Source: an uncultured Spirochaetota bacterium (GTDB lineage: Bacteria; Spirochaetota; UBA4802; UBA5550). From it: a stretch of 64,000 nt of DNA. Below, piece after piece: positions 2,442 to 48,561 of this stretch (its first letter is position 1; the number at the start of each line of letters is the position of its first letter). Made by a program: the position numbers and the translations under genes. The notes below the pieces were generated by a model. The model had not been told where the DNA came from. It did not search any database and saw only the letters and a list, made by a program, of their open reading frames with translations. The stretch is taken from assembly GCA_942493035.1 (NCBI GenBank), contig OW818666.1, positions 4,129,464-4,193,463 of the forward strand, read 5' to 3'.

Positions 2442-4676
2442 ATGAAAACAAGTTTTAAACGGGTAAAAATAAAAGTAAAAGGGATAGTCCAGGGCGTAGG
2501 CTTCCGTCCCGCTATGGCTAAACAGGCTCTCTTAATGAGGCTTACAGGGAAAGTCTGCAACACCAGAGATTCCGTAGAAATTGAGATTCAGGGTGATATA
2601 GAGACTGTTCAGCAGTACATCGACCTGTTTGATAGTTTTGTCCCTGAAAATGCAGTTATATCTTTTTTCTCGACAGAGGAGATTCCGTGGGTTCCAGACG
2701 GAAAGACATTCAGTATAATTGAAAGCAGAGAATCGGGGCCGACGAGATTCAGTATCCCTCCCGATATAGCAATGTGCGGCAGATGCCGTGATGAGTTTTA
2801 TGATACTCAAAACAGAAGATATCTCTATCCGTTTATAACCTGCGGCAACTGCGGCCCGCGGTACACCTACATGAAAGATATGCCATATGACAGGGCAAAG
2901 ACATCTATGTCTGCTTTCCCATTCTGTCAGGAATGTGCAGATGAATATAATAATCCTGAAGACCGGCGTTATCATATAGAGGGATTTTCATGTCATGTAT
3001 GTGGTCCTGCCGTGTCCGGTTTTGAAGAGACTATAGCTGCATTACTTGATGGTAAAGTTGCTGCTGTTAAAGGTCTTGGGGGATATAATATTGTCTGCTC
3101 TGCAGTAGATTATAATGCGGTGCAGAGACTTCGAGATAGAAAGCGCAGGCCTGGTAAACCATTTGCAATAATGTTCAGATCTTTAGAAACAGCCCGTCAG
3201 TATGTAAACATTGCTCCTGAAGAGGAGAGACTTCTGACATCAAAGGTGTCCCCCATAGTTGTAGTCAGAAAGAGGGAGCATTCGGCGATTGCGGAGAATA
3301 TTGCTCCGGATAACGGATATCTGGGGATAATGATTCCATATACTCCGCTTCACCAGCTAATTCTTGACCGGGCGGATATACCTTTGGTTATGACAAGCGC
3401 AAATATATCGGGAGATCCATTGATAATAAACGATGATAAAGCTTTATCGGAACTTGCAGATATAGCCGATGTTTTTTTAACGCATAACAGAGAGATATAT
3501 AAGAGAGCTGACGATTCTATTTCGTTTATATCCGGCGGAAAAGAGATAAGTATAAGGATGGGGAGAGGTAGAATGCCCTATCCTGTAAAACTCCCTGAAG
3601 AGAGCAGAAATAAAATCCTCGCTGTGGGAGCTGAGCTGAAGAGTAATATCTCTGTTGTATCAGATGATAATCTTGTAACCAGCAATCATATTGGAGACCT
3701 GGGTACACCGGAGACATTTTCGCACTTTCTGGAAACAATTCTTGAAATATCGGATTTTTATGATATAAAACCTGATGTGGTAATTGCTGACCTTCACCCC
3801 GATTACGAGTCAACATCCTTTGCCCGGGAATTTTCAGATAAATACAATATCCGGCTTATGCAGGTTCAACATCATTATGCACATTTTCTTTCATGTTATT
3901 TTGAAAACGGTTTAAACGGCAAAGCGGTTGGGATAATTTTTGACGGTACAGGTTATGGAACTGACGGCACCATCTGGGGCGGAGAAATTTTTACAGGAGA
4001 TCTGCATTCATTCAGCAGGGTCGGCAGACTCGCTCCTTTTCCCCTGCCCGGCGGAGAGAGAGCAATTCGTGAACCATGGCGAATCCTCTCGGGACTTCTC
4101 GATGAAGAAGATTTTTTTAACTGCTGTTCCTGGGTGGATAAAAGTGTTCTTGATAATGTACTGCAGATTTCAGCAAACAGAAATTTTTCACCCTTAACTT
4201 CAAGTGCCGGCAGACTCTTTGATGCGGCCGGGTCGCTTCTAGGATTTAATAAAAATGTTTCATATGAAGCGGAGGCTGCAATCTATATGGAGATGCTTGC
4301 GCTGAGAAGCAGCAGTGATGAATATATCTCTGTCCCGATAACAGAAGAAAACGGTTTATTTGAATTCAACTCACCGGAACTGATTAAAGAGTTATACCGG
4401 AGAAAAAAATCGGGAGATAGTTTATACGATCTTGCAAAGATTTTTCACAATTCGCTGATTGAAGGAGCGGCTAATATAGCCGCAGAGGTCTGTTATAAAA
4501 ACGGAACTGATCAGGTAGTTTTAAGCGGAGGTGTTTTTCAGAACAGGATTATGCTTGATTTGGCCGAAAAAAAGCTTGCGTCTAAAGGGTTGAAAGTTTT
4601 TATTAACAGAAATATCCCTTCAAGCGATGCGGGGATTTCAGCCGGACAGGCAATTTACGGGGTTTACAATGCATGA
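2442..4676 (+). CDS. hypF: Carbamoyltransferase HypF
   Basis: GIVQGVGFRP acylphosphatase domain, two CxxC-x18-CxxC zinc fingers, DLHPDY, QHHYAH, FDGTGYG, DAGISAGQ. Confidence 0.97.
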   Translation: MKTSFKRVKIKVKGIVQGVGFRPAMAKQALLMRLTGKVCNTRDSVEIEIQGDIETVQQYIDLFDSFVPENAVISFFSTEEIPWVPDGKTFSIIESRESGPTRFSIPPDIAMCGRCRDEFYDTQNRRYLYPFITCGNCGPRYTYMKDMPYDRAKTSMSAFPFCQECADEYNNPEDRRYHIEGFSCHVCGPAVSGFEETIAALLDGKVAAVKGLGGYNIVCSAVDYNAVQRLRDRKRRPGKPFAIMFRSLETARQYVNIAPEEERLLTSKVSPIVVVRKREHSAIAENIAPDNGYLGIMIPYTPLHQLILDRADIPLVMTSANISGDPLIINDDKALSELADIADVFLTHNREIYKRADDSISFISGGKEISIRMGRGRMPYPVKLPEESRNKILAVGAELKSNISVVSDDNLVTSNHIGDLGTPETFSHFLETILEISDFYDIKPDVVIADLHPDYESTSFAREFSDKYNIRLMQVQHHYAHFLSCYFENGLNGKAVGIIFDGTGYGTDGTIWGGEIFTGDLHSFSRVGRLAPFPLPGGERAIREPWRILSGLLDEEDFFNCCSWVDKSVLDNVLQISANRNFSPLTSSAGRLFDAAGSLLGFNKNVSYEAEAAIYMEMLALRSSSDEYISVPITEENGLFEFNSPELIKELYRRKKSGDSLYDLAKIFHNSLIEGAANIAAEVCYKNGTDQVVLSGGVFQNRIMLDLAEKKLASKGLKVFINRNIPSSDAGISAGQAIYGVYNA

Positions 4677-5013
4677 ATTGAGTCTTGCAATGAGCGTGCG
4701 GGAGATTGTTGAAGATGCCGCTAAACAGAACGGTGCAAAAAAGGTTAATGAAGTAAATATAATTGTCGGAGAGTTTAGTTCAGTATCCTCCGATGCTCTT
4801 GAGTTTGCAATGGAAGTTGCTAAAAAGGGTTCTGTTTTTGAATTCGCTAAAATTAATATAAAATCTACAAAGACAATTCTTTCATGCAGTCAGTGCAATC
4901 AGGAGACAGTTATGGAAGACTACATTTTTAAATGCGGTGCCTGCGAATCCACATCAGTAAAGATTGTATCCGGCGATAGAATGTACGTTGACTCAATTGA
5001 TATAGAAAACTAG
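4669..5013 (+). CDS. hypA: Hydrogenase nickel metallochaperone HypA
   Basis: Start corrected to ATG 4669 (MHELSLA, conserved His2), overlapping the hypF stop; CSQC and CGAC zinc motifs. Confidence 0.95.
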   Translation: MHELSLAMSVREIVEDAAKQNGAKKVNEVNIIVGEFSSVSSDALEFAMEVAKKGSVFEFAKINIKSTKTILSCSQCNQETVMEDYIFKCGACESTSVKIVSGDRMYVDSIDIEN

Positions 5014-5023
5014 GAGAATTTTA

Positions 5024-5719
5024 ATGCATTACGTTGAACTTGAAAAAGATCTTCTTCATCAGAATGATAAACTTGCGGAAAACATAAAGAGTAATATGGA
5101 CGATCATCAGATATATGTTCTTAATATTATGAGTGCACCGGGTGCCGGTAAAACAAGTCTCCTTGAGGCGGTGCTCCCTGAACTTGCAAAGAAATACAGA
5201 ATAGCGGTAATTGAGGGAGATATTCAGGGCTCTGCCGATGCAGACCGACTCTCTAAACTGAATATAAATGTGCACCAGATAAACACGCACAGCCTGTGTC
5301 ATCTTGAAGCTGCTATGATTGAGCGGGCGCTTACAAACTTTGATCTTCACAAAATAGACTGTCTGATAATCGAAAATGTAGGGAACCTTGTCTGCCCGGC
5401 AGATTTTTTTCTCGGAGAGGATGAAGTAATAATGGTAGCATCAGTTTCCGAAGGACACGACAAGCCTCATAAATATCCTGTGATGTTCAGCAAGGCAGAT
5501 CTTATTGTTCTTAACAAAGTTGATATTTTAGATTCAACCAATTTCGATACAGATATTTTTTACAAACAGGTTCGTGAACTTAACAGAGATGCAGGAATAA
5601 TGGAAGTTTCAGCAACTAAAGGGACTAATGTTTCGAAACTGATTAATCACATTGAACATGGTATACAGCATAAAAAAGGGCACCATCATCATGATCACGG
5701 CGATCATCATCACCATTGA
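5024..5719 (+). CDS. hypB: Hydrogenase nickel GTPase HypB with C-terminal His tail
   Basis: SAPGAGKTS, IEGD, CHL, ENVGNLVCP, EGHDKPHKYP, NKVD; ends HKKGHHHHDHGDHHHH. Confidence 0.95.
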   Translation: MHYVELEKDLLHQNDKLAENIKSNMDDHQIYVLNIMSAPGAGKTSLLEAVLPELAKKYRIAVIEGDIQGSADADRLSKLNINVHQINTHSLCHLEAAMIERALTNFDLHKIDCLIIENVGNLVCPADFFLGEDEVIMVASVSEGHDKPHKYPVMFSKADLIVLNKVDILDSTNFDTDIFYKQVRELNRDAGIMEVSATKGTNVSKLINHIEHGIQHKKGHHHHDHGDHHHH

Positions 5720-6543: not shown

Positions 6544-9138
6544 ATGAAAACATATGCTATTTTTTTTCAGTTAATTATTGTAGCTATGCTGTTAAATCCG
6601 CAGACACTTTTCTCTTCAATTCTTCTGCCGGAGGAAAATGATTCAGTTGCTCTTGCCGAAAAACTTTCACTGGAGTTAAAACAGAATCCTGACGGGGAAC
6701 ATATGCCGTTTTATATAAATCGACTTATGGAAATAGCCCCGGCCGTGGGGAGAAAGCAAATCTCAGCGGTGTTTAAAGATGTGGCTGCCAGGCTGAAATT
6801 AGAACCAGGAAAAGGTATCATTACCGGGCAGATTTTAAAATACTCAATCGATGAACTGGAAGGAACCAGTTCAGCAATTAACGAAAATTTCACTATCTTA
6901 AAGAGATGGAATATATCCGGTCCATGGAAGAGATATGGCAGACCCGATTATGAGTATAAATTTAATCCTGAACTGGTTTATAAAATTGAAGATATTGAGA
7001 AGGGTCGAAATTTCTCTACAGAAGAGAATGGGAAGTTATTTACCCTTGGAATAAATAATAGCGACGATAAAATTTTTTACGCAACATGCTCCTTCTTAAG
7101 TACTGGAGCTGTTATTCTGTGGATTACCGCTGATTCTGAATATAAGCTCATTATCAATGGCAAAGATATTCATAATAATAAGTCAGTTGGGAGACCTGTT
7201 GTACATGCTGTCAGGCTTAGCGGTGCCAGGGGTTATACTGTGCAGATGAAGATGTACAGCCCGGTTAGTGATAATCATCCTTACATTAAAGGGATGGTTA
7301 CAGATGAGCATCATAACAGGATTGAATTAAAATACAGTTCCGCAATCTATACATATAATTTTGAATCAGAGAATATATTCAATTCAGAAAAATCTGGAGA
7401 ATCTTTATCATCTGATGCTTCAGTCATAACAGATAAAATGAGTAGACACATCCTTAACGGTGATTTTGCTGAGGGATATAAACTTGGTCTTACTATAATA
7501 GATAAATACCCGTCATATTTTCCTGCATATAAGGTTTTTATTCCGCTACTTGATGTTATGAATAGAGAAACGGAGTTTAATCAGATTATGGATAAATATC
7601 TGAAACTCTTTCCATCATCAGATGTGCATTATAACTGGCTGGCTGATTTTTATATGACCAGAGACAGGGATAAGTTTACAGCTCTTGTCAGATCTATGCC
7701 GGTCAGATATTTTTCAAGAAATGCGTTTAAAACATACGTCTATCTGTTATGCGTAGAAAAAAAATATTCCGAAGCTGTTAACCTTTGTAAAACATTAAAA
7801 TCTGATCCGGTTTTCAATCAGATTATTCCGGAAATATTAAGAGCTTCAGGAGACAGCAATGCCTGGAGGAGGTCGCTCATCGATAGCGCTGCTGTCTTGG
7901 ATAATAACGGGCTATACTATTCGCTCGGCCTTGCAGAGAAGCAGCTCGGACTCGATCCTGTAATGTACTGGTCAAAAGGATTTTCGGTGGAGGATAATCC
8001 CGATTTGATGATGGATATCTCTGATATTTATGAAAATGGTATTATTCAGGGGAACGATTTTTATACAGGAAAGTATACCGATCTTCATCCTGAGTTCGGA
8101 TGGAACGGGAAAAAAAGGAAAATATCAATCCATCTTTTTGAATCGGGAAGAGTGGTGCTGGATGGGGAGGATATAATTCCTCCGGGTGAAAAAATCAGCA
8201 AAGAGAAATACTCTGAAGGTGGTATTGAATTCTCTTCGGGTGAGATTAAAACAGATATACCATCTGTAAGCGGGATCAGGGTTTTATACGTTTTAACAGC
8301 TAAGGATGGACTCCCCACTGCTGTTGATTTCGGATCGGCCCGTTCTGATAAAAACAGGCTTTATGTAAAATATAGATCCAGCGGTAAAGAGGAGTTCTCG
8401 GTTATTAAATATTCAGCGGAATATCTGAGTCGTGGTGAAGATGTATTCAGTTTTATTAAACAGCTTGTTTTAAAATCAGAAAATGAAAATGTCTCATGGC
8501 TTGAATATGAGGTTGTCTGTCATGGAAATTTTACCCCGGATATTCAGTATAATGGAAAACCGTTATCGCCGGGAAGATATAATGACGGGATTATCAGATT
8601 TGAGTCAAAGGAGAGATTGTCTAAAAATAATCTTAAAAATGCAGTTCTGGATATTCACAGATTTCCCGATGAAAAAACATTTGTTAAATGGTATAGCGGA
8701 GTGATAAAATATACGGAAAAATCTGCCGCCGGCATAAGTGTAATCCCCTCTGAAAATGAGAGTTTTGAAAGTATAATAAAAAATATTCATTTTAAAATCA
8801 TCTCCACCATCTCTAAAAGAGGAGTGATAAATTTCAGTCCAGGCGAAATGGAAAATATAATTAAAAATGGAGAGGGGACTGTTGAGGAGAGAACTCATCT
8901 TGCCAGAGGAATTCTTGAAAGAAGAGGAATAAAATCATTTATCGCGTTCAGTAAAAAAAGCTCAGGATTAATTAACAAAATACTGCTCTACGTTCCTGAA
9001 AATAGAGACAGAGGATACTGGCTTAATTTTTATGGTGAAGGTATTTCAGATAAGATGGAATCCGGATCTGATACTATTGTTATAACCGGAGAAGGCTATA
9101 ACACAATTCCGGTTAATCCTGAAACCTATATCAGGTAA
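6544..9138 (+). CDS. Large exported protein with TPR-like helical region and a C-terminal transglutaminase-like fold
   Basis: N-terminal signal peptide, WNISGPW, helical repeats, GTVEERTHLARGILERRGI in register with the transglutaminase core motif. Confidence 0.6.
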   Translation: MKTYAIFFQLIIVAMLLNPQTLFSSILLPEENDSVALAEKLSLELKQNPDGEHMPFYINRLMEIAPAVGRKQISAVFKDVAARLKLEPGKGIITGQILKYSIDELEGTSSAINENFTILKRWNISGPWKRYGRPDYEYKFNPELVYKIEDIEKGRNFSTEENGKLFTLGINNSDDKIFYATCSFLSTGAVILWITADSEYKLIINGKDIHNNKSVGRPVVHAVRLSGARGYTVQMKMYSPVSDNHPYIKGMVTDEHHNRIELKYSSAIYTYNFESENIFNSEKSGESLSSDASVITDKMSRHILNGDFAEGYKLGLTIIDKYPSYFPAYKVFIPLLDVMNRETEFNQIMDKYLKLFPSSDVHYNWLADFYMTRDRDKFTALVRSMPVRYFSRNAFKTYVYLLCVEKKYSEAVNLCKTLKSDPVFNQIIPEILRASGDSNAWRRSLIDSAAVLDNNGLYYSLGLAEKQLGLDPVMYWSKGFSVEDNPDLMMDISDIYENGIIQGNDFYTGKYTDLHPEFGWNGKKRKISIHLFESGRVVLDGEDIIPPGEKISKEKYSEGGIEFSSGEIKTDIPSVSGIRVLYVLTAKDGLPTAVDFGSARSDKNRLYVKYRSSGKEEFSVIKYSAEYLSRGEDVFSFIKQLVLKSENENVSWLEYEVVCHGNFTPDIQYNGKPLSPGRYNDGIIRFESKERLSKNNLKNAVLDIHRFPDEKTFVKWYSGVIKYTEKSAAGISVIPSENESFESIIKNIHFKIISTISKRGVINFSPGEMENIIKNGEGTVEERTHLARGILERRGIKSFIAFSKKSSGLINKILLYVPENRDRGYWLNFYGEGISDKMESGSDTIVITGEGYNTIPVNPETYIR

Positions 9139-12294: not shown

Positions 12295-12380
12295 GTCGGG
12301 CCAAATGATTATTTGCCCGTACGGGATGAATATTATCTGAAAAATTTTGGTCGTTGGGGCAAATAATCATTTGCCCGCAT
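12295..12380. repeat. Inverted doublet of REP-like palindromes
   Basis: GTCGGGCCAAATGATTATTTGCCCGTAC (12295-12322) and, in the opposite orientation, GTTGGGGCAAATAATCATTTGCCCGCAT (12353-12380); 30-nt spacer. Confidence 0.75.
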
Positions 12381-12437
12381 GGATGGATATTGTTTCGAAA
12401 TTTCTTAAAAGAAAATAAGGTTAAAAAGATAAATAAA

Positions 12438-13433
12438 ATGAGATTCAGAATAAGACACTATCATAATAAGTTTTCAAGAAAATTCTACGAGAGCTACTTC
12501 GTTTTCAAAAAGAAGAGGGAGAAGGTCTGGAAGAGATTTGTTGAAAAGGGTCATGAAAAAATGACCGTTATGTTTATCCCTCACAATGAGAAGAAGATTT
12601 TCAACTTCCAGATATCTAAATTTATTATTTTTTTCTTTCTCAGCCTTTTTATATTTGTTATCATTACCTCCTCTTATGCCGTAATTAAAAACAGAAATAT
12701 TAAAAATGAGGAGAGAAAACTTCTCCTTTCATATAACGATATCCGGGCTGATCTTATCCGGTACGAACAGCTGACAAATGAAATTACAGATATAGTAAGC
12801 GATCTAAAACCGGATATTGAAGATCTCTATCAGCTTGCGGCAGGTACTGACGAGATTGGTGATCTATGGGCATACAAGGATTTCGACCATGATGTTATGG
12901 AGGAGCTCCTTAAAAATAAGAGAATTGTCCCTGATGAGATTTTTGCAATGAAAGAAGTGCAGAAGGATTTAATGAGCACAACCAGCACTATTAAAACAAT
13001 TAAGAATTTTATCGATGTGAGAAGCAAAGTTATTCAGGACATGCCGTCTATCATACCTAATCCCGGTCATATATCGTCTCTATTCGGATGGAGAAGATCA
13101 CCTTTCGGTCACGGGAGAGATTTCCATACCGGTATAGATATCGCCGCATCTGCAGGAACTGTTATCCGTACCACCGCACCTGGTGTAGTTGTCTCATCGG
13201 GATGGATGGGGGGATACGGAAAAGCAGTAAGGATTCAGCACAAATTCGGTTATGAAACTATTTACGGACATATGAGTTCCATTGCTGTGGGCAAAGGGGC
13301 TAAAGTCGGAAAGGGTGACCGCATCGGTTTTGTCGGAATGACAGGAAACGCCACAGGTAACCACAACCATTATGAAATCAGACTTGGAGATATTCCAATC
13401 AACCCGTATCCATATATGAGTCGAATGTGGTAA
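12438..13433 (+). CDS. M23 family metallopeptidase (murein hydrolase or activator)
   Basis: TM helix, coiled coil, HTGID, YGHM, HNHYE. The track start at 12354 lies inside the REP doublet, so ATG 12438 is preferred. Confidence 0.9.
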   Translation: MRFRIRHYHNKFSRKFYESYFVFKKKREKVWKRFVEKGHEKMTVMFIPHNEKKIFNFQISKFIIFFFLSLFIFVIITSSYAVIKNRNIKNEERKLLLSYNDIRADLIRYEQLTNEITDIVSDLKPDIEDLYQLAAGTDEIGDLWAYKDFDHDVMEELLKNKRIVPDEIFAMKEVQKDLMSTTSTIKTIKNFIDVRSKVIQDMPSIIPNPGHISSLFGWRRSPFGHGRDFHTGIDIAASAGTVIRTTAPGVVVSSGWMGGYGKAVRIQHKFGYETIYGHMSSIAVGKGAKVGKGDRIGFVGMTGNATGNHNHYEIRLGDIPINPYPYMSRMW

Positions 13434-13441
13434 TATTTTTA

Positions 13442-13470
13442 TTGCTCTGTTTTGAGTGATATGGTATAAT
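13442..13470 (+). promoter_or_regulatory. Sigma70-type promoter with extended -10
   Basis: TTGCTC-N17-TATAAT with TG at the extended position, 38 nt before the 1882-aa gene. Confidence 0.65.
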
Positions 13471-13508
13471 CAGCTGTTTTATAATAAATAATGCAGATCA
13501 GCAGCTGA

Positions 13509-16500
13509 ATGAATAGAATATTTTTAATCTACATCTCTTCGCTTGTCATAACCGCTGCTGGTATTTATTATGCAGGGGCGCAGGATCATTCCGGTTTTAA
13601 AGAAAAAATGATTCAATTCCTGGAAAATGCCGGGACAAAAAGTGATTCTGCTGAACCGGCAAATCCGGAAAATAATGTCTTTCTTCGATCTGATAATAAT
13701 AACAATACATTTTTTAAAAGCGGTGAATGGTCGGAATATGTTTCCAATCCTGAATCGTTTATAAATCCGGAGCAGTTTAAAAACGGAAATCTTTATTCCG
13801 ATGAGAAGATAAACATAAATGCTTCCGGTTCCGTTAATGTAAATCTCAACTACGGTAAATCATACTATACCAGCAAAAAATATATTCAGTATGATGAGGA
13901 TCTCCCGTATTCAAGAGTTATCGATTCGGGATTCTGGCCGGAGCAGAAAATTCTCCTGCACATGGACGGAACTATCGGTGATAGAATAACCGTTTTTATC
14001 GATCATGACAGCAGCCGGAAAGAAAATCAGTATATGCTCAATTACCGTGCCCTCTCTGATGATGAAGTTATCCGCGAGATAAATGCCGGAGAGATTGATA
14101 TAAAATTTAATCACTCCAGATATGCAGTTTATGACAATACTGATGCAAAAGGTCTTGGTGTCGATTTTACTCTGGCAAAGAATGATTTTACATTAAAAGC
14201 CTTCGGCAGTGTGGCACGGGGTGAAACAATGGTGGAATATTTTAAGGGTAATTCATCTCCATCCGGTATTAAAATTGCGGAATATCAGTATATAAGCGCA
14301 ACCTATTATCAGCTCGAACCTTTTATCCGCTACGACGGAGCTGCTGTAACTCCTTCAGGGAGCGGAGCTTATTCTCTTGTAACATTTACTTCAGCACCGG
14401 CTAATCCAGCGGCATATGTTCTGTCTCCCGTTAACATCTCACCGTCAGATTTTGAACTCTATGTAGACGATCAGAACCAGTATAACAACAATAACGCAAT
14501 TGTCCTCCCCCTCGACGGGGGATATTATACAAGAATGGTCAGCGGTAGTGATTATTCTATTAATTTTTCTACAGGGGTTATTCATTTATTGAAGGAGTTT
14601 CCTCAGAGTTCAAGGATATTTGCAGTATATAAACGGACAGGGGGGACTCTTGATCCATGCGCATTATCATCTGGACCCGGGATATTTTCCAACAGAATAT
14701 TTGTTTTTATAAAATACGGCTACTCCATTGATGAAGATCGAAACAAAGATCTGGTGCTGGATACCGGTGAAGATAGAAATGGCGACGGCAGAGTTAATCT
14801 TGATATCTATGAAATCAGATCGGTCTATTTTCTCGGTAACAGGCAGATTCTTTCATCAGACTTTTCCATAGATTTTTATAAAGAGAATCAGATTATGGAT
14901 AAGGAGGATATAACTAAACTCAGCAGCTATAGGCTTAATCTCCAGGAAGGTTTAATTCAATTCTCTACAAGGGAGCCCTTTAAATCAGTTCTGCCTGCAG
15001 ATAAAGCGGCCAGAATTTATACTGAAACGAAAGTTATTGATGGCTATCTCTACTCATTATATAATATGATCTCTGAGTTCAATGTTGAGGCGCGGCTGTT
15101 CAAGTTAAAGTATAGTAATGTCATTGATAAGAGTGTCCGGGTCAAGATCAATGAAGTTGAACTCTCTCCATCTTTATATAGTGTAGATTATGAATCAGGC
15201 TATATAAATTTTATAGATTCAAATAATCCTGTAATAAGTTCAGATTCAAGAATTGAAATTAAATATGAGTATCTCCCATTCGGCTCTTCAAGTGAAAACT
15301 TCATCAGCGGCGTACGTGCAGATTATGATTTAAACAAAAGCCTGAGACTCGGCGGAACCATAATGTTTTCCAAAGACGGACAGAGTGAAATTATTCCCGA
15401 TATCGGAAATGTAAGCGAGCAGACGCTGCTATTCGAAGGGGATGCGTCGCTAAGGCTTTCGCAGAAGCGTCTGGCGGATCTATATAATATTTTTGCAGAG
15501 AGAAAAAAGAGATCTATTCCGGCGGAATTCTCCGCCTATGCCGAGTATGCAAAGAGCATTAAAAATGTGAATACGTTCGGAAAAGCCCTTATTGACAACA
15601 TGGAGACCTCGGACGAAATAGTTTCAGTTTCACTGTCAGAGAAAGACTGGATTCTGTCATCTCTCCCTGCCTCATATTCGCAAAGCAGCCGGGGTCTGCT
15701 GAATTACTATTTTTACAGAAATCCCGATTCCCCCGAGACATTAAAGGGTGAAGGGTATAATTCCTACCTGATAAATTACTCAGTAAAATCAGGACCGTTT
15801 AATATTGCAATGGGGCATGTTGATTCTGATATTACAGAGCAGGCTTATCAGAAGTCTCTTGTTTTTGATTCTAATTTCTCAGCAGGTCAGAATATTGTAA
15901 GTGCTGTAACAAGAGAACTGACTGATACCTCCATAGATCTCTCGGGGATGCAGTACGTTGAAGTATGGGTTAAATATGAAGGTGGAGCTTCGGACTCGGT
16001 GGACCTCAAGCTCGACTTCGGTTCAGTAGATGAGGATTCCGATGGTGACGGAGTATTTGATACGGAAGATGCAAACAGGAACGGATACATAGACTCTGAA
16101 CCGTCAACGGGATACTCCGAGGATCGTGGATATGTTTTTAACCCGGCCGGCGGGACAGCGACAAAGATCGGTTCAGGACCGGGTCTGAGCAGTTTAACAA
16201 AGGGTGATGGTGTACTTACCAGTGAGGATCTTAACGGGAATGGTCTGCTTGATATAACTAATAATATTTATCAGGTGGACGTCGGGACTATTACTCCGGC
16301 TGGTGGAGTATGGCAGAAGCTCAGAGTTCATATCGACTGGAGTACTGTCTCATCATCGCAGATACAGGCGCTTCAGCAGACAAAAAGTATTAGACTTAAT
16401 CTTGTAAGAAATAACGGATCATCCGGCCGTGTGTCAATCGATACTCTTAAAGTCATAAGTGCAAAATGGAAAAATCCGAAGCTGAATGACATCACTCCTA

Positions 16501-19157
16501 TCAATGATCCGGAGACTATGAAGATTACACTTGTAAACAGCATTAGTGACAGCGATTACAGAAATGAATCCTTTCTAATCAGAGAGAGATCATTGTATAA
16601 ACAGCTTTATGGAGATGAAAGCACCGATGATATAGAGAGCGAAAGCGAAACGGCCCTGCAGATAGAATATAATCTTAATGCACCGGATTATGCTTCGGTT
16701 ATAAGAAAGTTTTCAAAAGAGATAGATATAAGATTTTATAAAACAATGAATTTATGGCTTAATGTCAGAGATAGTATCTCATCAAATGTGATCGGATTCA
16801 TCATCGGATCATCTGACAGTGATTTTATTGAATACAGAATCACCCCGAATTTCAGTATGATCTGGAGTGAGATTAAATTAAAATTATCTAAAGATTCCAG
16901 CGGGAATATTGATAAGTATCAGGTCACAGGAAATCCCGATTTAAAAAGAATAAAATATATCAAAGCAGTAGTGCATGGAAACGGAAGCAGCGGTAAAATC
17001 TGGCTTAACGAAATATATGTATCTGAGCCTGAAACACTGGAGGGTGATGCTAAGTGGTATGAATTTGAAATGAAAACACTAAGACCTCTGTTTAAAACTG
17101 CTTCCGGTGTACCTGTTCTTTCCGATATGAATTTACGTTATATATATAAAGGGCACTCTTCTCAGTTCAGTTCAGTGAATAAAACTTCATCTGATGTAGA
17201 AGAAAATTATCATGAGCTTTTTGCATCTGCGAAGATCCTCCCCAATTGGGATACAAATTTTAATTATGTCAATGAATTCAGCAGAACGGACAGTTTGAAT
17301 GAAGAGGTTGCCGACGCAAAAAAAGGGGATGCACGGAGAAATTTTTTCATGGTGAATTCGGTTTTTAATTCTACCGTAGAGAATGTTCCTTCGATTACAT
17401 TTTCATACTCATTTGATAAAAATGAGAATATAAGAGAGGCGGCATCTGAAGGGAGCAGTTACAGCGAAGATTCAATCAGTGTAATTCACACACCGGTTAT
17501 TTTATACAGACAGGATCTTGAAGATTTTCTTTACGGGAAATTTTCACTCAGGATGATTCTTGATATGGCTTTTTCGCATAACAAAATAGATCGTGATTCG
17601 TCCGTGATAGATGACGCAATGCTTTCATCATCAGTAGTCTTGAGTGAGTCTGAAAAAAAACAGAAATCTGATGCTAAAATTGAACTGGATTATGCAAACA
17701 GTCTGTTCTTTTTTCGTCCCCAGTTTACAACATCTTCTATCGAATATGTAATGTTAAACGGAGGGGATAATTATGATGAAACAGGTGTTGACGGCGGTTT
17801 AAACGGGAATTTCTATTTACCGTTCCGGAACTATGATGACTCAAAGTTTATAGAGAGAAATAACGGGACAGGTTTTACTCTGGGAGTAAAGTTTCTGGAA
17901 TATCTGTCTCCGGAATATTCCATGAGTGTAGATTATAAAGAGAATGCATTTAAAGATTATAAAGATGAAACGGTAATCGATGAAGGTTTCAGCCGGTTTA
18001 AAAGCACCATGTCCAATTTAACTTCGGAGATTACACTCCCTTTCCAGTTAAGAAAAATTGAAGTGTTAAAAAGAGTAAAAAATTTTCAGTTGAATTATCA
18101 GCGTTCAATATATTTTAATGAAGCTGATGTCCCCTATGAGGGGGAGGGAACCGGTCTTTTTGATGAAGAATACGGGATATCAAATGTGCTTAAAGGAGCT
18201 GCTTCACCCGCTTATAATCTGATTTCAAATTATCCCGGATTATATTTCAGAGGGAGAGGGAATGCCGGGAAGGGCCGTGATTTATTATATAATGCTTTAA
18301 ATGATGATGACGGCATCAGTGAGCTTGGCAGTTCAAGTGAATATAATAATTCGCTCAAACTTGTAGATAGATTAAATGCCGATATCTCTGTTGATGCGGA
18401 TCTATTCAAATTTTATTCTTCAGGGAGTATCAGCCAGGTCTGCGAAAGGAGTAATGTTTACGGAATTCCAAATCAGGTATTGATTGCGGACACCGGTGTG
18501 AATTTTGAGTTTGATCTTATGAAGATATTCAGCTTCGGTTTTTTCAGGGCAAATGGTGAGGGCTTGTCATATCATGCTGCGAATTTTGACGTTGGTCTGA
18601 GTTTTACGGACAGTATGCTCATTACATATAATATAAATGAAAAGAAGATTGCTCCATCAGCGGGATTCGTTTTCAACTGGAACAGGAGCAGTCTGAATTT
18701 AAAATATGAATTTGAATTCAGAGATAAAAACAATGAAGAATATATAAGTACATCTCTTGAAGAAGATGATACTGATTTTATCTATCTTCAGAATATGGAG
18801 GGGAGCAGCAGTTTCAGCGAGAAGGATTACGGCCATGTATTTCTTTCGAGGTATGAAACAGACATCGAATGGCTCTATTCATTTTTTTCGAACTTCTACA
18901 AATTAACAGGTATACCGTTATTTTCTATAGAATACAGAATGGAGATAAATAGATACGATTATTTTAAAACCGTGGCGCCTGAACCGTATGACCTTTTTAT
19001 GCTCTCATCAAATCTTAATCTTGATCTTCACAGGAATATTCAGGGTTCTATCGGCGGAAAAATGGCTATGGAAAAATTCAGAAACAGAGAAAATAATGGT
19101 ATAAGCAGAGAGATAATGTCTTATGAAGTCAATGCCGGGATATCTTTTATTTTCTGA
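13509..19157 (+). CDS. SprA/Sov-like large outer-membrane protein
   Basis: Signal peptide, C-terminal Phe, and a colinear series of SprA-type motifs: YSVDYESGYINF, YEY, LIDNME, DLSGMQYVEVW, DFGSVDED, EDLNGNG, DIRFYKTM, GNPDLKRIK, IWLNEI. Confidence 0.7.
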   Translation: MNRIFLIYISSLVITAAGIYYAGAQDHSGFKEKMIQFLENAGTKSDSAEPANPENNVFLRSDNNNNTFFKSGEWSEYVSNPESFINPEQFKNGNLYSDEKININASGSVNVNLNYGKSYYTSKKYIQYDEDLPYSRVIDSGFWPEQKILLHMDGTIGDRITVFIDHDSSRKENQYMLNYRALSDDEVIREINAGEIDIKFNHSRYAVYDNTDAKGLGVDFTLAKNDFTLKAFGSVARGETMVEYFKGNSSPSGIKIAEYQYISATYYQLEPFIRYDGAAVTPSGSGAYSLVTFTSAPANPAAYVLSPVNISPSDFELYVDDQNQYNNNNAIVLPLDGGYYTRMVSGSDYSINFSTGVIHLLKEFPQSSRIFAVYKRTGGTLDPCALSSGPGIFSNRIFVFIKYGYSIDEDRNKDLVLDTGEDRNGDGRVNLDIYEIRSVYFLGNRQILSSDFSIDFYKENQIMDKEDITKLSSYRLNLQEGLIQFSTREPFKSVLPADKAARIYTETKVIDGYLYSLYNMISEFNVEARLFKLKYSNVIDKSVRVKINEVELSPSLYSVDYESGYINFIDSNNPVISSDSRIEIKYEYLPFGSSSENFISGVRADYDLNKSLRLGGTIMFSKDGQSEIIPDIGNVSEQTLLFEGDASLRLSQKRLADLYNIFAERKKRSIPAEFSAYAEYAKSIKNVNTFGKALIDNMETSDEIVSVSLSEKDWILSSLPASYSQSSRGLLNYYFYRNPDSPETLKGEGYNSYLINYSVKSGPFNIAMGHVDSDITEQAYQKSLVFDSNFSAGQNIVSAVTRELTDTSIDLSGMQYVEVWVKYEGGASDSVDLKLDFGSVDEDSDGDGVFDTEDANRNGYIDSEPSTGYSEDRGYVFNPAGGTATKIGSGPGLSSLTKGDGVLTSEDLNGNGLLDITNNIYQVDVGTITPAGGVWQKLRVHIDWSTVSSSQIQALQQTKSIRLNLVRNNGSSGRVSIDTLKVISAKWKNPKLNDITPINDPETMKITLVNSISDSDYRNESFLIRERSLYKQLYGDESTDDIESESETALQIEYNLNAPDYASVIRKFSKEIDIRFYKTMNLWLNVRDSISSNVIGFIIGSSDSDFIEYRITPNFSMIWSEIKLKLSKDSSGNIDKYQVTGNPDLKRIKYIKAVVHGNGSSGKIWLNEIYVSEPETLEGDAKWYEFEMKTLRPLFKTASGVPVLSDMNLRYIYKGHSSQFSSVNKTSSDVEENYHELFASAKILPNWDTNFNYVNEFSRTDSLNEEVADAKKGDARRNFFMVNSVFNSTVENVPSITFSYSFDKNENIREAASEGSSYSEDSISVIHTPVILYRQDLEDFLYGKFSLRMILDMAFSHNKIDRDSSVIDDAMLSSSVVLSESEKKQKSDAKIELDYANSLFFFRPQFTTSSIEYVMLNGGDNYDETGVDGGLNGNFYLPFRNYDDSKFIERNNGTGFTLGVKFLEYLSPEYSMSVDYKENAFKDYKDETVIDEGFSRFKSTMSNLTSEITLPFQLRKIEVLKRVKNFQLNYQRSIYFNEADVPYEGEGTGLFDEEYGISNVLKGAASPAYNLISNYPGLYFRGRGNAGKGRDLLYNALNDDDGISELGSSSEYNNSLKLVDRLNADISVDADLFKFYSSGSISQVCERSNVYGIPNQVLIADTGVNFEFDLMKIFSFGFFRANGEGLSYHAANFDVGLSFTDSMLITYNINEKKIAPSAGFVFNWNRSSLNLKYEFEFRDKNNEEYISTSLEEDDTDFIYLQNMEGSSSFSEKDYGHVFLSRYETDIEWLYSFFSNFYKLTGIPLFSIEYRMEINRYDYFKTVAPEPYDLFMLSSNLNLDLHRNIQGSIGGKMAMEKFRNRENNGISREIMSYEVNAGISFIF

Positions 19158-20229
19158 ATAAAGAAGCGGCCCGTTTTAATGCTGTTGAGAAAAATGAACT
19201 TATGTCGTGAATGTAAATCTGATCCCGTGATTTTTTTAATTTTTCGATAGTTGTAATTTCAACTGTTTTCCAGAGCAGATTTTTATCCGGACACGCCTGA
19301 AAATAATCCAGTTTAATCTGATATGCCCCTTTGAATTGTCTCCCTCCGCCTGTCGGTGTTATGTTTTTTATTAAAGCATTAATATCAAGATTTTCAGATT
19401 TTGATCTGAAGGATACATCAAGAAAAAGTTCCCCTCGGGATTTATCTTCAACAATAGCATAAACAATTACAGTGCTGGTGTCGGGCTTTTTTAAAAGAAG
19501 ATCTGCGGTTATTGCTATTGAATCGCGGCTTTCAATATCTATAAAACCGATACCATAGAATCGCCAGTCTTTATATATGTGCTGATTCTCTGTTGCTTTT
19601 CTGTAATATCTCATTGTTACAGGTGAAATCGGGATTCCGTTAATCTTATTGATTATATCTTTGTCTGAAAATTCTGAGAGATACCGCATTGCTTCAATGT
19701 CTATTGAAGTTGCATGTTCATATTTATCCGTATCTGTCTGAATTCCGAACATCAGCGCAGTTGAAGCAGAGATGAGATCTTTACTGCTAAGAGGCGGTAT
19801 ATGATCTTTAATCATAAGAGCTATCAGTGAGCTGGTGGATCCTGCATCTGTTTTAATAAGTGAAAAATCTGATGATACTTTTTTATCTGTTTTTGTGTGA
19901 TGATCGATATGGGCCGCACATGGTATAGTCCCGGAAATTCCATCTATAATATTTGTCTGAAAATCGGGAACAATGTAAGCATCGTATTTTTGGGGAGACA
20001 GATCTTTTTTGAAAAAAAGAGGTATGTCGAGATATTTCACAAAGGCTTTATTCTGTGATAATGATATTTTTTTTGAAATAATAATGTCAGAATTAATTGA
20101 AACTGATGACAGCAGAATCTTTAACGCATATGCCGAGGCAAGAGCGTCCGGATCCGGAGATCCAAGTATGATGATCATAATATTTTTATACTGTTTTACG
20201 GCAGCCATGAACGCTTCAGTGTTGTTCAT
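19147..20229 (-). CDS. DHH family phosphoesterase (NrnA/c-di-AMP phosphodiesterase-like)
   Basis: PDPDALAS, IDHH, GIQTDT, GGGR in a DHHA1-like C-terminus. Confidence 0.88.
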   Translation of the reverse strand: MNNTEAFMAAVKQYKNIMIIILGSPDPDALASAYALKILLSSVSINSDIIISKKISLSQNKAFVKYLDIPLFFKKDLSPQKYDAYIVPDFQTNIIDGISGTIPCAAHIDHHTKTDKKVSSDFSLIKTDAGSTSSLIALMIKDHIPPLSSKDLISASTALMFGIQTDTDKYEHATSIDIEAMRYLSEFSDKDIINKINGIPISPVTMRYYRKATENQHIYKDWRFYGIGFIDIESRDSIAITADLLLKKPDTSTVIVYAIVEDKSRGELFLDVSFRSKSENLDINALIKNITPTGGGRQFKGAYQIKLDYFQACPDKNLLWKTVEITTIEKLKKSRDQIYIHDISSFFSTALKRAASLFRK

Positions 20230-29794: not shown

Positions 29795-29922
29795 CAATAT
29801 TTATTCCTTAATTTTTATAGAGTATAAAAAGATCTATTATCCCCGGCGCCGAAGGCGGCGGGGATATGTATTTTTTGTTTTTCACACTAAATTTTTATTT
29901 TTCGAATAATCAATAATTACTG
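29795..29922 (-). mobile_element. MITE copy 3 (128 bp, reverse orientation), inserted in the 3' end of the slt gene
   Basis: Reverse-complement match to copies 1, 2 and 4; direct repeat TTTATAAAT at 29786-29794 and 29923-29931. Confidence 0.88.
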
Positions 29923-32217
29923 TTTATAAATAGATTCATATTGAATTAGACATTTTTTTGTTCTGAAAATATAATCCCTTGTTTCATCAAATGGTGTGAA
30001 TTCTGCAAAATAATCAATATCTTTATTAACCGGTCTTTTTTTCCATTTGCTGACATTTCCGGCGCCGGCATTATACGCTGCTGCCATATATTCAATCTGA
30101 CTATCAAAATATTTATTCAGCCATGCTATATAATTTGATCCGAACTTTATAGATGTGCATGGATCAAATAGGTCGTACTTTGAAGCACTGATTTTTTTCG
30201 AAATATCTTTAGCGGTATCCGGCATAAGCTGCATAAGACCAGACGCACCAACTGGTGATACTGCCCTGTGGTTGAAGTTTGATTCCACTTTTATCATGGC
30301 AAGTATGAGTTCAGGCTTAACTGAATTTTTTTTAGTTGCATCATCTACGCAATCTGCAAAAGCATATGGGTAGAGTGCCGCGGCAAAGTTTTGAGGTATA
30401 AGAGAAAGGTTTTCCTTCAGTTCAAGGAGGTTCAAAAGTTTGAAACTATAAAGAGTTGAAAAATTATAATATCTGTATTTCATTGAATAAACTGTTAATG
30501 CAAGAGCCAGATCTATCTGTGCTTCTTTATCATTTTCCGGAAAAAGTTTTATTTCTCGGTTTATTGCTTCTATATCCCCTGCATAAAAGTATAATTCCAT
30601 GTGTTTCACAAGCAGCTTATATCTGGAAGTGTAATGCGGATTATTCATTAAATCAGCCAGTTTTTTATAAGGGGATGTAACGGCTGTATCCAGTTGTTCT
30701 AATCTTTCCGTATAGGAAGTGGTATATCCGTTTTTTATAAAGAGCAGTGCGTGATAAAGTTGTAACTCATTACTATTGTTTTTTTTAGCGGCTTGTTGAA
30801 ATTTAGTTAACAGTTCTGATGTTTCCAGTTTATCGGCGTATAATTTAAGAAGAGATAAAGTGTGATATGAGTCCGGATTATTTACAGCAAGCTCTTCAAG
30901 AATTTTAATGTAGTTTAGTGAATTATTGTCTGCAGCTGATATTTTATTCATCCAGAATCTGCAGTATGATGTATAACTGTTATCGGGGTATCTGTTTATC
31001 CCTCTGGTGAAGTAATCAACAGCCTTCTGTTTGTTAGAGTAGTTCATATAGAAACGGCCCATTAACCATATAAAACGTCCACACTGAATTTCTTCGGGAA
31101 ACTTTTCTATATACATCTCCATGTACCTGATAAACTCAGGATTTTTTTTACTTTCATAAAAAAATGAAAGTCTTGTCAGAACTTTTTCAGATATTTTTAT
31201 ATCTGATGATGAGATAAGTCTGGTGTAGACTTTAACTGCCTTAATCTTTTTTCCCATTTCCCATAGTATATTCGCGTGTTCCAGTAAAAGCTCATCATAA
31301 CCGGATTTACCTTCTCTCTCTTTGAGAAATTCTGCCGCTTCCGGAGAATTTTTGATAGTGTGCATTTTCAGTATTATCATTTGACCATCAGATGATTCCG
31401 TTTCCGGAATCGCTGCTTCTGCAAGAGTAAGAGCTCTGTTGTAATCCTTTGCGTCGTATAGAGCTTTTGCGAATAATATGTTCTTGTCTGCTGAGTCGAG
31501 TTTTATCTTTTTCTCAGTTGTCAGGTAAACTAATCGTTTAGAGGCAACACTGTTCTGCCATACCCCGCCTGCGGATTTTATAACATTTAAATATGATTCA
31601 ACAGCGTTTTGTAAATCTCCTGCTGATTCATATATTGCTCCGAGACGTAAATGAATTAACGAAAGGGATTCGCTGTCTTTGTATGATGGGATTATCAGCT
31701 GCAGAGCGTCTATGGCGTTTTTAAAACGGTTAAGTTTTAAAAGAGATCTTGTTCGAAGGAGAACGGAATCCCTGTAGAGTGCTGAATCATCTCTTTCAAT
31801 GAGATCTGAAAATTTTAAGACATATTCATGTTCCCCATAATCATAAAAGATAGATGCAATTTTATAAATTGAATCTCTATAAAAAATACTCTTCTCATTT
31901 GGTGATCCGGTAAAACGATAAATCGGATCAGGGAAAAGCCTTATATTAAAATTAAAATTTTTATCAAAGCAGCTGTTGGTATAGTAAAGCAGGGCTTTCT
32001 TTAATTCTTTTTTGTTACGGTATGCACCTGCAAGAATATAATTGTTCTGACAGTTCCCGATCCTTTTGTCGAATTTGTGAATTATAGCTTCAGGCTTGCT
32101 GTAAAAAGCTTTTTCAGATAATGATGCTGATAATTCGTGGTTTATTAACGGTTCTGCAGATGAGAGTGAGATGATAGAAAAAGTAAAAAATAATACTGCT
32201 GTGATTTTTTCAATCAT
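29917..32217 (-). CDS. Soluble lytic transglycosylase with TPR/helical N-terminus
   Basis: KVESNF (catalytic Glu), GASGLMQLMP, AAYNAG, ETRDY. Confidence 0.92.
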   Translation of the reverse strand: MIEKITAVLFFTFSIISLSSAEPLINHELSASLSEKAFYSKPEAIIHKFDKRIGNCQNNYILAGAYRNKKELKKALLYYTNSCFDKNFNFNIRLFPDPIYRFTGSPNEKSIFYRDSIYKIASIFYDYGEHEYVLKFSDLIERDDSALYRDSVLLRTRSLLKLNRFKNAIDALQLIIPSYKDSESLSLIHLRLGAIYESAGDLQNAVESYLNVIKSAGGVWQNSVASKRLVYLTTEKKIKLDSADKNILFAKALYDAKDYNRALTLAEAAIPETESSDGQMIILKMHTIKNSPEAAEFLKEREGKSGYDELLLEHANILWEMGKKIKAVKVYTRLISSSDIKISEKVLTRLSFFYESKKNPEFIRYMEMYIEKFPEEIQCGRFIWLMGRFYMNYSNKQKAVDYFTRGINRYPDNSYTSYCRFWMNKISAADNNSLNYIKILEELAVNNPDSYHTLSLLKLYADKLETSELLTKFQQAAKKNNSNELQLYHALLFIKNGYTTSYTERLEQLDTAVTSPYKKLADLMNNPHYTSRYKLLVKHMELYFYAGDIEAINREIKLFPENDKEAQIDLALALTVYSMKYRYYNFSTLYSFKLLNLLELKENLSLIPQNFAAALYPYAFADCVDDATKKNSVKPELILAMIKVESNFNHRAVSPVGASGLMQLMPDTAKDISKKISASKYDLFDPCTSIKFGSNYIAWLNKYFDSQIEYMAAAYNAGAGNVSKWKKRPVNKDIDYFAEFTPFDETRDYIFRTKKCLIQYESIYKQ

Positions 32218-33023
32218 CAGTTTTCCAGAATATAGTTTTTGTACTCAGGAATTTTGTCAAGTTCAGGATTGGATGTAAATGCATCATATATGGAAGCAGA
32301 GGTTTCTATTTTATAGAAATTATCAAAATGAATTTTATTGTACTTCTCCTGATTTTCAGGGATATATTGGTCTATAAGATCCTTTACTGTATTAAATTTG
32401 TTATAATTAATTCGCCCCTTTTTTTCCGGCGGAATTCTGTTTTCAATTAACGCAATTATCCCGTATCGTTTACAGTATTTTGCATTCTTTATAGCTTTAA
32501 CATATTCATAAATTTTAATTGAATAATTTTTTTCCGGGAGGTTGTCCGACATAATTTTAACTTTTTCAGCCCAGTCAGCGGAACGGTATCCAAGAGACAT
32601 ATATTTCTTTGATGCTTTATTTCCGGTTTTAAGCACTTCAGGTGCTATTTCGTTAAGAAGTAAAGTTGCACTTTCGATTTCGCGGATAGCAATTTTACTG
32701 AATAGATTTATAAGTATCAGCTGTGAAGTTCTGATCTCGTTCATTGCAGGATTAAATGAAAATTTCATATAGAGCATTCGCGAAATCATATCCCGTCTTG
32801 ATGCTTCGAGAAATAATGCTTTCTCTTCATCGGTTCCGCTATTTGTTATTGTTGTATTAATAAAGTTCAAAAAATATCTGTTGTCTTTCAGACTTTTTTC
32901 TGAATGCCTCTGATTTCCCGCGCTGAGACTCGATTTAGTTCTCTGGGAATATGAAGGTTGTGCCAGAATAAGCAGTAAAGCTAATATTGATGAAATAAAA
33001 GCTGTAATTTTTTTAGAGGTCAA
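32217..33023 (-). CDS. Exported protein resembling the Leptospira OmpL37 adhesin family
   Basis: Signal peptide; IAPEVLK...LGYRS, YSIKIYEY...KRYGIIALI...PPEKK and HFDNF match my recollection of the OmpL37 pattern (not searched). Confidence 0.6.
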   Translation of the reverse strand: MTSKKITAFISSILALLLILAQPSYSQRTKSSLSAGNQRHSEKSLKDNRYFLNFINTTITNSGTDEEKALFLEASRRDMISRMLYMKFSFNPAMNEIRTSQLILINLFSKIAIREIESATLLLNEIAPEVLKTGNKASKKYMSLGYRSADWAEKVKIMSDNLPEKNYSIKIYEYVKAIKNAKYCKRYGIIALIENRIPPEKKGRINYNKFNTVKDLIDQYIPENQEKYNKIHFDNFYKIETSASIYDAFTSNPELDKIPEYKNYILEN

Positions 33024-36979: not shown

Positions 36980-36984
36980 AAAAT

Positions 36985-47937: not shown

Positions 47938-48561
47938 ATGCTAAGTTCAACAATGATTTACAAGGGTGGGATTATTATGATCCCTATTATTCTTGGATCT
48001 GTAATAGCTCTTGCAATTGTCATTAACAGAATTAATTATTTTCTATCAATCAAAATGGATTTAGATTCATTTATAGATAAAATTCATTCGCTGGTCAGAG
48101 CCGATAAAATTGATCAGGCTGTAAGTGAATGTTCTGCAGTTAAACACCCTCTCGGGAAGGTCTTCCGTGCTGGTCTTGAGAATATTCATAAAGACCGTAC
48201 CGGTATTGAACGGAGCATGGAGAGATCCGGTACAATGGAGATTGCGGAGGCCGAGAAGTTTATGCTGCTCCTTGTGATTATAGTTGGTGTAGAGCCTATG
48301 CTCGGTTTTCTCGGTACAATTATGGGGCTGATACAGTCTTTTATGGCATGGGAGAAACTGGCCGGAGCGGTTACAGTCGATTTTCTTGCTGCGGGAATTT
48401 ATCAGGCTATGATCACTACTGCCGGGGGACTTATTGTAGCAATACCGTATTATATAATATATCATGTAATGGTGGGCAGAATTAATACCCTTGCAAGGGT
48501 TCTCAATCATCAGGGTGAAGAGCTGCTCGACCTGTTAAAGGATACACGGAAGGTTTCATAA
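47938..48561 (+). CDS. MotA/TolQ/ExbB proton channel protein
   Basis: GG..M.PI, PMLGFLGTIMGLI, GIYQAMITTAGGL.VAIP. Confidence 0.93.
   Translation: MLSSTMIYKGGIIMIPIILGSVIALAIVINRINYFLSIKMDLDSFIDKIHSLVRADKIDQAVSECSAVKHPLGKVFRAGLENIHKDRTGIERSMERSGTMEIAEAEKFMLLLVIIVGVEPMLGFLGTIMGLIQSFMAWEKLAGAVTVDFLAAGIYQAMITTAGGLIVAIPYYIIYHVMVGRINTLARVLNHQGEELLDLLKDTRKVS

Follow-up and report, generated by a model that had tools for sequence, protein, structure and literature searches.

Does the outer-membrane translocon of type IX secretion systems (T9SS) have a counterpart in the spirochaetes, and would it export proteins there? The question is raised by one giant gene in a 64-kb stretch of DNA from the 4.95-Mb genome of an uncultured Spirochaetota bacterium (contig OW818666.1); the window, as used below, means the whole of this stretch. 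The canonical translocon SprA forms a barrel of 36 strands that bears a cap and opens laterally; it is served by the carrier PorV, sealed by Plug, and relieved of its cargo by release driven by the proton-motive force (PMF) (PMC10994853). Reviews and TXSScan treat it as a hallmark of Bacteroidota or the Fibrobacteres-Chlorobi-Bacteroidetes (FCB) group (PMC4793230, PMC7463736, PMC10202324). Our literature search yielded no report of a SprA homologue in Spirochaetota, and the papers it covered describe the T9SS as confined to the Bacteroidota/FCB group. The gene in question is:

13509 to 19157, plus strand: SprA-superfamily giant outer-membrane β-barrel protein as predicted, 1882 amino acids (aa) from an ATG start, with the stop codon inside these coordinates.

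By homology and fold, the protein is a member of the SprA superfamily and stands outside the curated SprA equivalog family. It is probably an SprA-type outer-membrane channel for protein export, a divergent full-length member of the SprA/Sov group.

The homology was established by profile-profile alignment with hhalign. A profile of the spirochaete family matches an N-terminal SprA fragment at E 2.8e-4 and a profile of 22 PF14349 fragments at 82% and E 1e-5 over 212 columns. Against full-length SprA alone (6H3I_A) the match rises to 98.4% and E 6.7e-15 over 683 columns, pairing aa 482–1192 with SprA 608–1524. When the SprA side is represented by a profile of SprA and the 25 relatives that SprA itself matches significantly in phmmer, the alignment reaches 100% and E 4.8e-89 over 1716 columns, and residues 2–1882 are paired with SprA 1–2401. 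The SprA query was checked against the deposited chain 6h3i_A, where the fragment agrees at 201 of 202 residues and the full length scores 5428 bits over 1–2403. Identity to SprA is 16.4%. The shortfall of 521 aa is spread across short loop deletions, nine of them of 22–52 aa, and no domain is missing. Co-linear motif pairs (protein of the window, then SprA) include GSVNVNLNYG and GSVEMDLGV, GFWPEQKILLHMDGTIGDRITVFIDHDS and FDFDQRISMSLMGKIGTRLEVNANYDT, DDEVIREINAGEIDIKF and EDDIIQKVEVGNVSMPL, LQEGLIQFSTREPF and VQNGRVIFTTKEPF, and YSVDYESGYINF and YSVDYQLGRVQI. Sequence homology over most of the length places the protein in the SprA/Sov superfamily.

The predicted structure leads to the same place. 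AlphaFold (AF2) models were produced for two overlapping halves, aa 1–1190 and aa 700–1882, each with a 43-sequence alignment. The C-terminal half has a predicted local distance difference test score (pLDDT) of 83.2, with 25 long strands between aa 1181 and 1880 (DSSP). The N-terminal half has a pLDDT of 72.5; confidence is low in its N-terminal strands, which would pair with strands of the C-terminal half. In a Foldseek search of the PDB the SprA chains 8gl8_A, 8gl6_A, 6h3i_A and 6h3j_A rank at the top for the N-terminal half (E 5e-34 to 9e-20, the next match at 7e-6), and the same four chains do so for the C-terminal half (E 1e-25 to 3e-21, the next at 6e-6), so that SprA stands apart from the next match by at least 14 orders of magnitude for both halves. 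The next-ranked matches, at E 6e-6 or worse, are isolated jelly rolls of the carbohydrate-binding module (CBM) type or 22-strand TonB-dependent barrels. The TM-scores of the half-models against SprA are merely 0.36–0.40, because the halves were modelled separately. The models thereby predict an SprA-like fold, in which three regions can be distinguished:

13785 to 14531, plus strand: N-terminal SprA_N-like block, aa 93–341, with about 8 predicted barrel strands at aa 104–257 (hhalign with PF14349; DSSP).
14952 to 17084, plus strand: central region, aa 482–1192, with about 5 barrel strands at aa 581–686 and β-sandwich or jelly-roll cap domains (hhalign; secondary Foldseek matches to CBM-like jelly rolls).
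17049 to 19154, plus strand: C-terminal barrel region, aa 1181–1882, with 25 long strands, ending in ...SYEVNAGISFIF (AF2 and DSSP; corresponding to SprA about 1529–2401).

The candidate long strands counted by DSSP on the split models amount to about 8 + 5 + 25, or roughly 38, which fits a 36-strand barrel without proving one.

Both ends of the protein carry features of an exported barrel, and acidic loops lie between them:

13509 to 13580, plus strand: putative signal peptide, aa 1–24, MNRIFLIYISSLVITAAGIYYAGA followed by QD, with likely cleavage after AGA (sequence; helix 2–25 in the model).
16029 to 16253, plus strand: acidic loop cluster of the Ca2+ type, aa 841–915, with DEDSDGDG, DANRNG and DLNGNG (motif scan; high conservation in the family).

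The n/h/c layout of the N-terminus suggests a Sec-type signal peptide, and the family consensus shows Ala at the predicted cleavage position. The C-terminus ...SYEVNAGISFIF, which may be written as an ...ISFIF β-signal, has Phe as its last residue; neither S1871 nor F1882 varies in the family alignments of 28 and 43 sequences. A signal peptide together with an aromatic-ended β-signal is what would be expected of an outer-membrane β-barrel protein dependent on the β-barrel assembly machinery (BAM). Exact Dx[DN]xDG loops occur at aa 422 and 841, and the relaxed form [DN]x[DN]x[DN]G occurs additionally at aa 854 and 907. The invariant acidic residues of the cluster are E842, D843, E853, D854, D862, E871, D872 and D907, and in the hhalign alignment the cluster pairs with ...GEISEDVLKDG... 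and ...VEDINRDN... of SprA. Binding of Ca2+ by these loops is plausible from the motifs.

Much of the preliminary description of this locus, which was made from the DNA letters, is borne out by these results. It had recognized an open reading frame (ORF) of 1882 aa with a signal peptide, a terminal Phe and acidic Dx[DN]xDG loops, all of which are present, and had read the protein as an SprA/Sov-like giant barrel with SprA-type motifs in SprA order. The co-linear alignments to authentic SprA bear out the order of the motifs, and structure, profile-profile and transitive HMMER evidence agree on the identity. Structure prediction followed by Foldseek against SprA was one of the checks that it had proposed, and SprA chains came first for both halves.

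The transitive evidence comes from a wider superfamily. An exhaustive HMMER search with a sub-profile of aa 95–700 recovered, at E<=1e-3, 1242 representative clusters, mostly of 1550–2200 aa; 314 clusters remain at E<=1e-30. SprA itself matches many of these clusters, with up to 249 bits; P0371 and P0335 exceed the TIGR04189 equivalog cut-off with 765 and 486 bits, respectively, and P0308 and P0296 reach the gathering score of Pfam SprA_N. By these sequence scores, the chain ties the spirochaete family to intermediates that score as true SprA. The named members belong to Hydrogenedentota, Caldisericota, Cloacimonadota, Hydrothermota and Firestonebacteria. Bacteroidota are thus far from the limit of this superfamily, and of the branches seen here the one formed by the spirochaete proteins diverges most. 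To name this locus the best candidate for an undescribed system was an overstatement: the superfamily is known and has members in several further phyla outside Bacteroidota, in some of which there are lineages with PorV-like genes and with cargo that carries a C-terminal sorting domain (CTD).

One such lineage is instructive. At L085:3809-7698, 2–6 kb upstream of an SprA-like gene of 1733 aa that has no Pfam SprA_N match, lie genes for a tetratricopeptide repeat (TPR) lipoprotein, a PorV/PorQ-family outer-membrane protein (E 3.8e-15) and an M6 metalloprotease. The tail of the protease scores 24.0 bits with TIGR04183, where the cut-off is 23, and its match to the CTD of PorU in 6ZA2 has an E of 0.006. 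No PDB sequence matched the PorV-like protein. The locus points to T9SS-type secretion in an unannotated lineage, and at least some bridging lineages therefore resemble true T9SS users. A PorV/PorQ-family protein and a type-A CTD protease beside an SprA-like gene support an export role kept across the superfamily.

The SprA-like genes of other phyla have different neighbors from those of the spirochaetes. Three separate lineages outside the spirochaetes have a ComF-family gene (double zinc ribbon and phosphoribosyltransferase) directly downstream of their SprA-like gene (L082:16765-17592, L083:5275-5919, L084:5049-5693, L085:15216-15932). LptF/LptG are divergent and upstream in L082 and L085, and UvrC is upstream in L086 and L087.

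In the spirochaetes, the giant gene belongs to the conserved core of a large clade without cultured members, where it occurs as a single copy. At least 120 full-length homologues of 1850–1930 aa share 38–75% identity, and every one is labelled "hypothetical". Those with a named source all come from Spirochaetota or Leptospirales metagenome-assembled genomes. When GTDB species representatives were scanned, the family turned up at no fewer than 79 loci, all in uncultured Spirochaetota apart from one contig. The exception, L067 (MWDJ01000049.1, "Bacteroidetes bacterium ADurb.Bin145"), is a 14-kb contig whose copy is 57% identical to the protein of the window, and its label is most likely a binning error and not the sign of a Bacteroidota family member. 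The host had been called an apparent spirochaete, and this is supported: the homologues place it in Spirochaetota/Leptospirales, outside the Bacteroidota/FCB group, and the window carries an OmpL37-family gene. A precomputed match to PF27067 exists for five homologues (P0067, P0069, P0092, P0098 and P0102); this family was not detected or named with the Pfam copy used here.

The genes around the giant gene were examined in the window and in 10 kb on either side of the gene in 82 related loci. The order in the window is MlaD, RadA, M23, the giant gene, a convergent DHH gene and SpoIIE phosphatase, IspE, a nucleotidyltransferase and Prs (Pfam); the remaining genes serve housekeeping, signalling and metabolism. 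The features adjoining the giant gene are:

12354 to 13433, plus strand: M23 peptidoglycan endopeptidase, directly upstream (Pfam Peptidase_M23, 4e-30; HxxxD and HxH motifs intact).
13456 to 13485, plus strand: promoter-like site GTGATA-18-TATAAT in the region between M23 and the giant gene (10/12 match).
19147 to 20229, minus strand: DHH/DHHA1 phosphoesterase, convergent, overlapping the 3′ end of the giant gene by 11 bp (Pfam).

The gap between M23 and the giant gene is 75 bp (median in the clade, 68 bp), and M23 is adjacent and on the same strand in 62 of 71 related loci, so that it is a possible operon partner. The DHH gene adjoins the giant gene in convergent orientation in 57 of 73 loci, but nothing evident connects the two in function. 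De novo clustering of neighbors in the 82 loci left M23, DHH and SpoIIE as the only widely conserved families; those that recur in 11–17 loci are all signalling or housekeeping. Since DHH and SpoIIE, which are convergent, keep their place next to the giant gene as well as M23 does, M23 as a functional partner is a hypothesis. The strong promoter of its own that had been credited to the giant gene is not established: promoter-like matches in the region number 26, with 25 expected from shuffled sequence, which is the level of chance, and the M23 gene ends merely 75 bp away.

How would such a protein act? By analogy with SprA, a role in protein export may be proposed, which could proceed as follows. 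The Sec machinery would export the precursor through its N-terminal signal peptide, and BAM would insert it into the outer membrane through the ...ISFIF signal. One very large barrel would then close from about 8 strands of the N-terminal part, 5 of the central part and 25 of the C-terminal part, and the β-sandwich inserts, stiffened by the acidic loops of the Ca2+ type, may cover its extracellular end; this step draws on the modelled fold and the co-linearity with SprA. Folded periplasmic proteins might enter the lumen and be released at the cell surface as in SprA, a step suggested by homology alone. The partners (carrier, plug and energizer) are not encoded nearby; they could be T9SS components of divergent sequence whose genes lie in other parts of the genome, or be of another kind.

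Several observations weigh against an SprA-type export channel. The giant protein has no match to Pfam SprA_N (PF14349) or NCBIfam TIGR04189 even at E<=1, nor do these models match any of four scanned family members, and searches of PDB sequences by phmmer with the protein and by hmmsearch with the family profile were both empty. These negatives are due to divergence and not to a lack of homology. Divergence as extreme as 16.4% identity, nevertheless, makes a change of function possible, and the models, being of two halves, do not show directly the closure of a single barrel, its number of strands, the cap or the lateral opening. The partners of SprA are missing as well: PorV-like, Plug, PorU/Z, GldKLMN and SprE genes were not found by Pfam and NCBIfam in the window (about 46 ORFs) or within 10 kb in the 82 loci, as the preliminary description had already remarked of the window. 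Their absence nearby carries little weight, because T9SS genes are normally dispersed, and the TXSScan model lists four T9SS components as loners (PMC4793230). Neither the PorV-family protein, the TPR protein nor the M6 protease of L085 has a homologue in the spirochaete loci. Single-seed jackhmmer searches for CTD and for PorV found nothing there, and a protein homologue search seeded with the L085 CTD gave no match.

The search for cargo gave similar results. Type-A CTDs numbered 0 in 1.8 Mb of clade DNA (5546 frames, about 0.5% of each genome) by a two-seed hidden Markov model and a motif scan, both of which recovered the positive control, although the sensitivity of these probes is limited. 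Among 150 C-terminal tails of signal-peptide-like ORFs compared with NCBIfam, no sorting-domain family appeared in the 25 most-matched families listed. In well-studied Bacteroidota that are rich in T9SS cargo, roughly 15–25 CTD proteins are expected in 1.8 Mb. The negatives are therefore moderate evidence against abundant classical cargo, given that the probes are weak.

Two accounts of the missing partners have to be compared. In one, the barrel serves as translocon in a T9SS that is divergent but complete, and the remaining genes lie dispersed over the 4.95-Mb genome, namely those for a carrier like PorV, a motor of the GldLM/PorLM type, a ring of the PorKN type, an attachment complex of the PorU/Z type and cargo tagged with a CTD; the T9SS would thereby extend to Spirochaetota. 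We regard this as possible, though short of an even chance. No function of SprA outside the T9SS is known (PMC10994853), the homology runs from end to end with no domain lost, and the normal dispersal of T9SS genes makes an empty neighborhood uninformative (PMC4793230). It is also favored by the non-Bacteroidota bridging lineages with a PorV-family gene and CTD cargo beside an SprA-like gene, and by a PorV/PorQ-family outer-membrane protein annotated in the spirochaete Brachyspira (10.1101/2025.01.03.631275). The two cargo searches speak against it, and so do the literature search, with no report of a T9SS in Spirochaetota, and TXSScan, which found none outside Bacteroidetes in a survey without this clade (PMC4793230). 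Alternatively, an SprA-like pore might stand alone or have acquired other partners, without the canonical motor, ring, PorV carrier and CTD signal, and might export spirochaete surface proteins, lipoproteins or another large substrate with clade-specific partners. This we hold to be slightly less likely. The failure of the curated SprA models on so divergent a protein and the absence of detected CTD cargo in the sampled clade DNA would be accounted for; the fixed synteny with M23 is the clade's own and is not seen around the SprA-like genes of other phyla, and the location among housekeeping genes suggests a core envelope function. However, no alternative partner or energizer was found, the adjacency of M23 may be plain synteny, and the CTD probes were limited in sensitivity. 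Release of SprA cargo needs energy derived from the PMF (PMC10994853), so that a version without a motor requires a new mechanism.

An energizer had been suggested in the preliminary description, namely an ExbBD-type motor. The window does contain a MotA_ExbB and ExbD pair, ExbB at 47938–48561 and ExbD at 48562–49002, both on the plus strand, and no TonB or TonB-dependent receptor was found among the window ORFs scanned. The pair lies about 29 kb from the giant gene and is not among the conserved neighbors in the 82 loci; being unlinked, it was rejected as the energizer. ExbBD/TolQR pairs are moreover common among diderm bacteria, and the giant protein showed neither a TonB-box-like feature nor a plug, so that this suggestion is now highly improbable. 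A structural role is very unlikely too, though slightly less so. The protein could be an envelope component, for instance an organizer between outer membrane and peptidoglycan that works with M23, and not a transport channel. The adjacent, same-strand endopeptidase with its intact catalytic motifs agrees with such a role, and LptF/LptG beside SprA-like genes in two other lineages hint at envelope biogenesis; yet the sole characterized homologue is a translocon, Pfam and NCBIfam find no peptidoglycan-binding domain in the protein, and it is difficult to see why a simple anchor should need a barrel of some 36 strands. An SprA-type export channel therefore stays our preferred reading of the giant gene.

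The window holds other features of note. Two ORFs on the plus strand (60815–61375 and 61397–63811, spanning 60815–63811) together correspond to a formate dehydrogenase alpha subunit and are split by an in-frame TGA at 61376–61378, between LEHQARI and HSSTVASLAATFGRGAMTNHW. The TGA resembles the selenocysteine site of selenium-dependent formate dehydrogenases, so that the two ORFs probably make up a single gene for a selenoprotein that carries a Tat signal. The ranges 35810–38558 (minus strand) and 2442–5719 (plus strand) together hold a cluster of LarC (Ni_insertion), LarB-like (AIRC) and LarE-like (QueC-type) genes, which suggests synthesis of the nickel-pincer cofactor, and, at the other end of the window from it, the hydrogenase maturation genes HypF, HypA and HypB. 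An ORF of 864 aa at 6544–9138 (plus strand) has no match in Pfam or NCBIfam and is conserved in about 10 related spirochaete loci. Genes for a TPR and SLT lytic transglycosylase, an OmpL37-family surface protein (151 bits, cut-off 150) and a metallo-β-lactamase-fold protein occupy 29917–33972 (minus strand). In the related locus L001, the transglycosylase has a counterpart that matches the flagellar-assembly type of Borrelia BB0259, and the block lies upstream of the giant gene, which points to rearranged synteny within the clade.

Our analysis shows that an end-to-end homologue of SprA, conserved in a spirochaete clade, escapes the current Pfam and NCBIfam models, and that its superfamily spans at least five further candidate phyla. 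If the T9SS is far wider and more divergent than annotated, surveys of secretion systems and the family models will need revision, and the family alignment obtained here would directly improve detection. If instead the barrel of SprA is older than the T9SS, or has broken away from it, and works with other partners, this bears on the evolution of the T9SS and on the delivery of surface proteins in spirochaetes, which is poorly understood. A stand-alone pore, if true, would mean a new secretion pathway built around an SprA-like channel in a Spirochaetota clade, possibly in other non-FCB phyla as well, and perhaps coupled to remodelling of the cell wall through the co-located M23 peptidase.

Among known systems, the closest comparison is with the T9SS outer-membrane translocon, SprA of Flavobacterium johnsoniae (Fjoh_1653; PDB 6H3I, 6H3J, 8GL6 and 8GL8) and Sov of Porphyromonas gingivalis. 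The spirochaete protein has in common with SprA and Sov the signal peptide and the architecture of a giant single-chain β-barrel. It is co-linear with SprA from end to end and shares with it the SprA_N-type block, the central YSVDY..G...F and EPF motifs and the acidic loop regions, and, at the level of the gene, a solitary position apart from other secretion genes. It differs from SprA in being 521 aa shorter at 16.4% identity, in falling below PF14349 and TIGR04189, in its Spirochaetota host and in its clade-specific synteny with M23; no PorV, Plug, peptidyl-prolyl isomerase (PPI), SprE, GldKLMN or CTD cargo accompanies it in the sampled DNA.

Closer in length are the shorter SprA proteins of candidate phyla, which have 1830–2030 aa and match the family profile at E<=1e-38. 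For instance, the P0335 cluster of Candidatus Hydrothermota carries the NCBI name "cell surface protein SprA"; P0371 belongs here as well, as does the P0316 cluster of Candidatus Cloacimonadota. These proteins pass TIGR04189 (486–765 bits) and are matched directly by F. johnsoniae SprA with up to 249 bits, whereas the spirochaete family falls below TIGR04189 and is absent among the direct SprA matches. Similarly, unannotated SprA-like giants of 1600–2200 aa, labelled "hypothetical" as in the spirochaetes, are found in Hydrogenedentota (P0260), Caldisericota (P0296), Firestonebacteria (the P0289 cluster) and unassigned metagenomic lineages (P0288 and P0308). Their gene contexts, with a ComF-like gene downstream and LptFG or UvrC upstream, are unlike those of the spirochaetes, and the P0288 locus has a PorV-family outer-membrane protein and a CTD-bearing protease, to neither of which the spirochaete loci yielded a counterpart. 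P0260 and its group, at 370–570 bits, are the closest outgroup to the spirochaete family.

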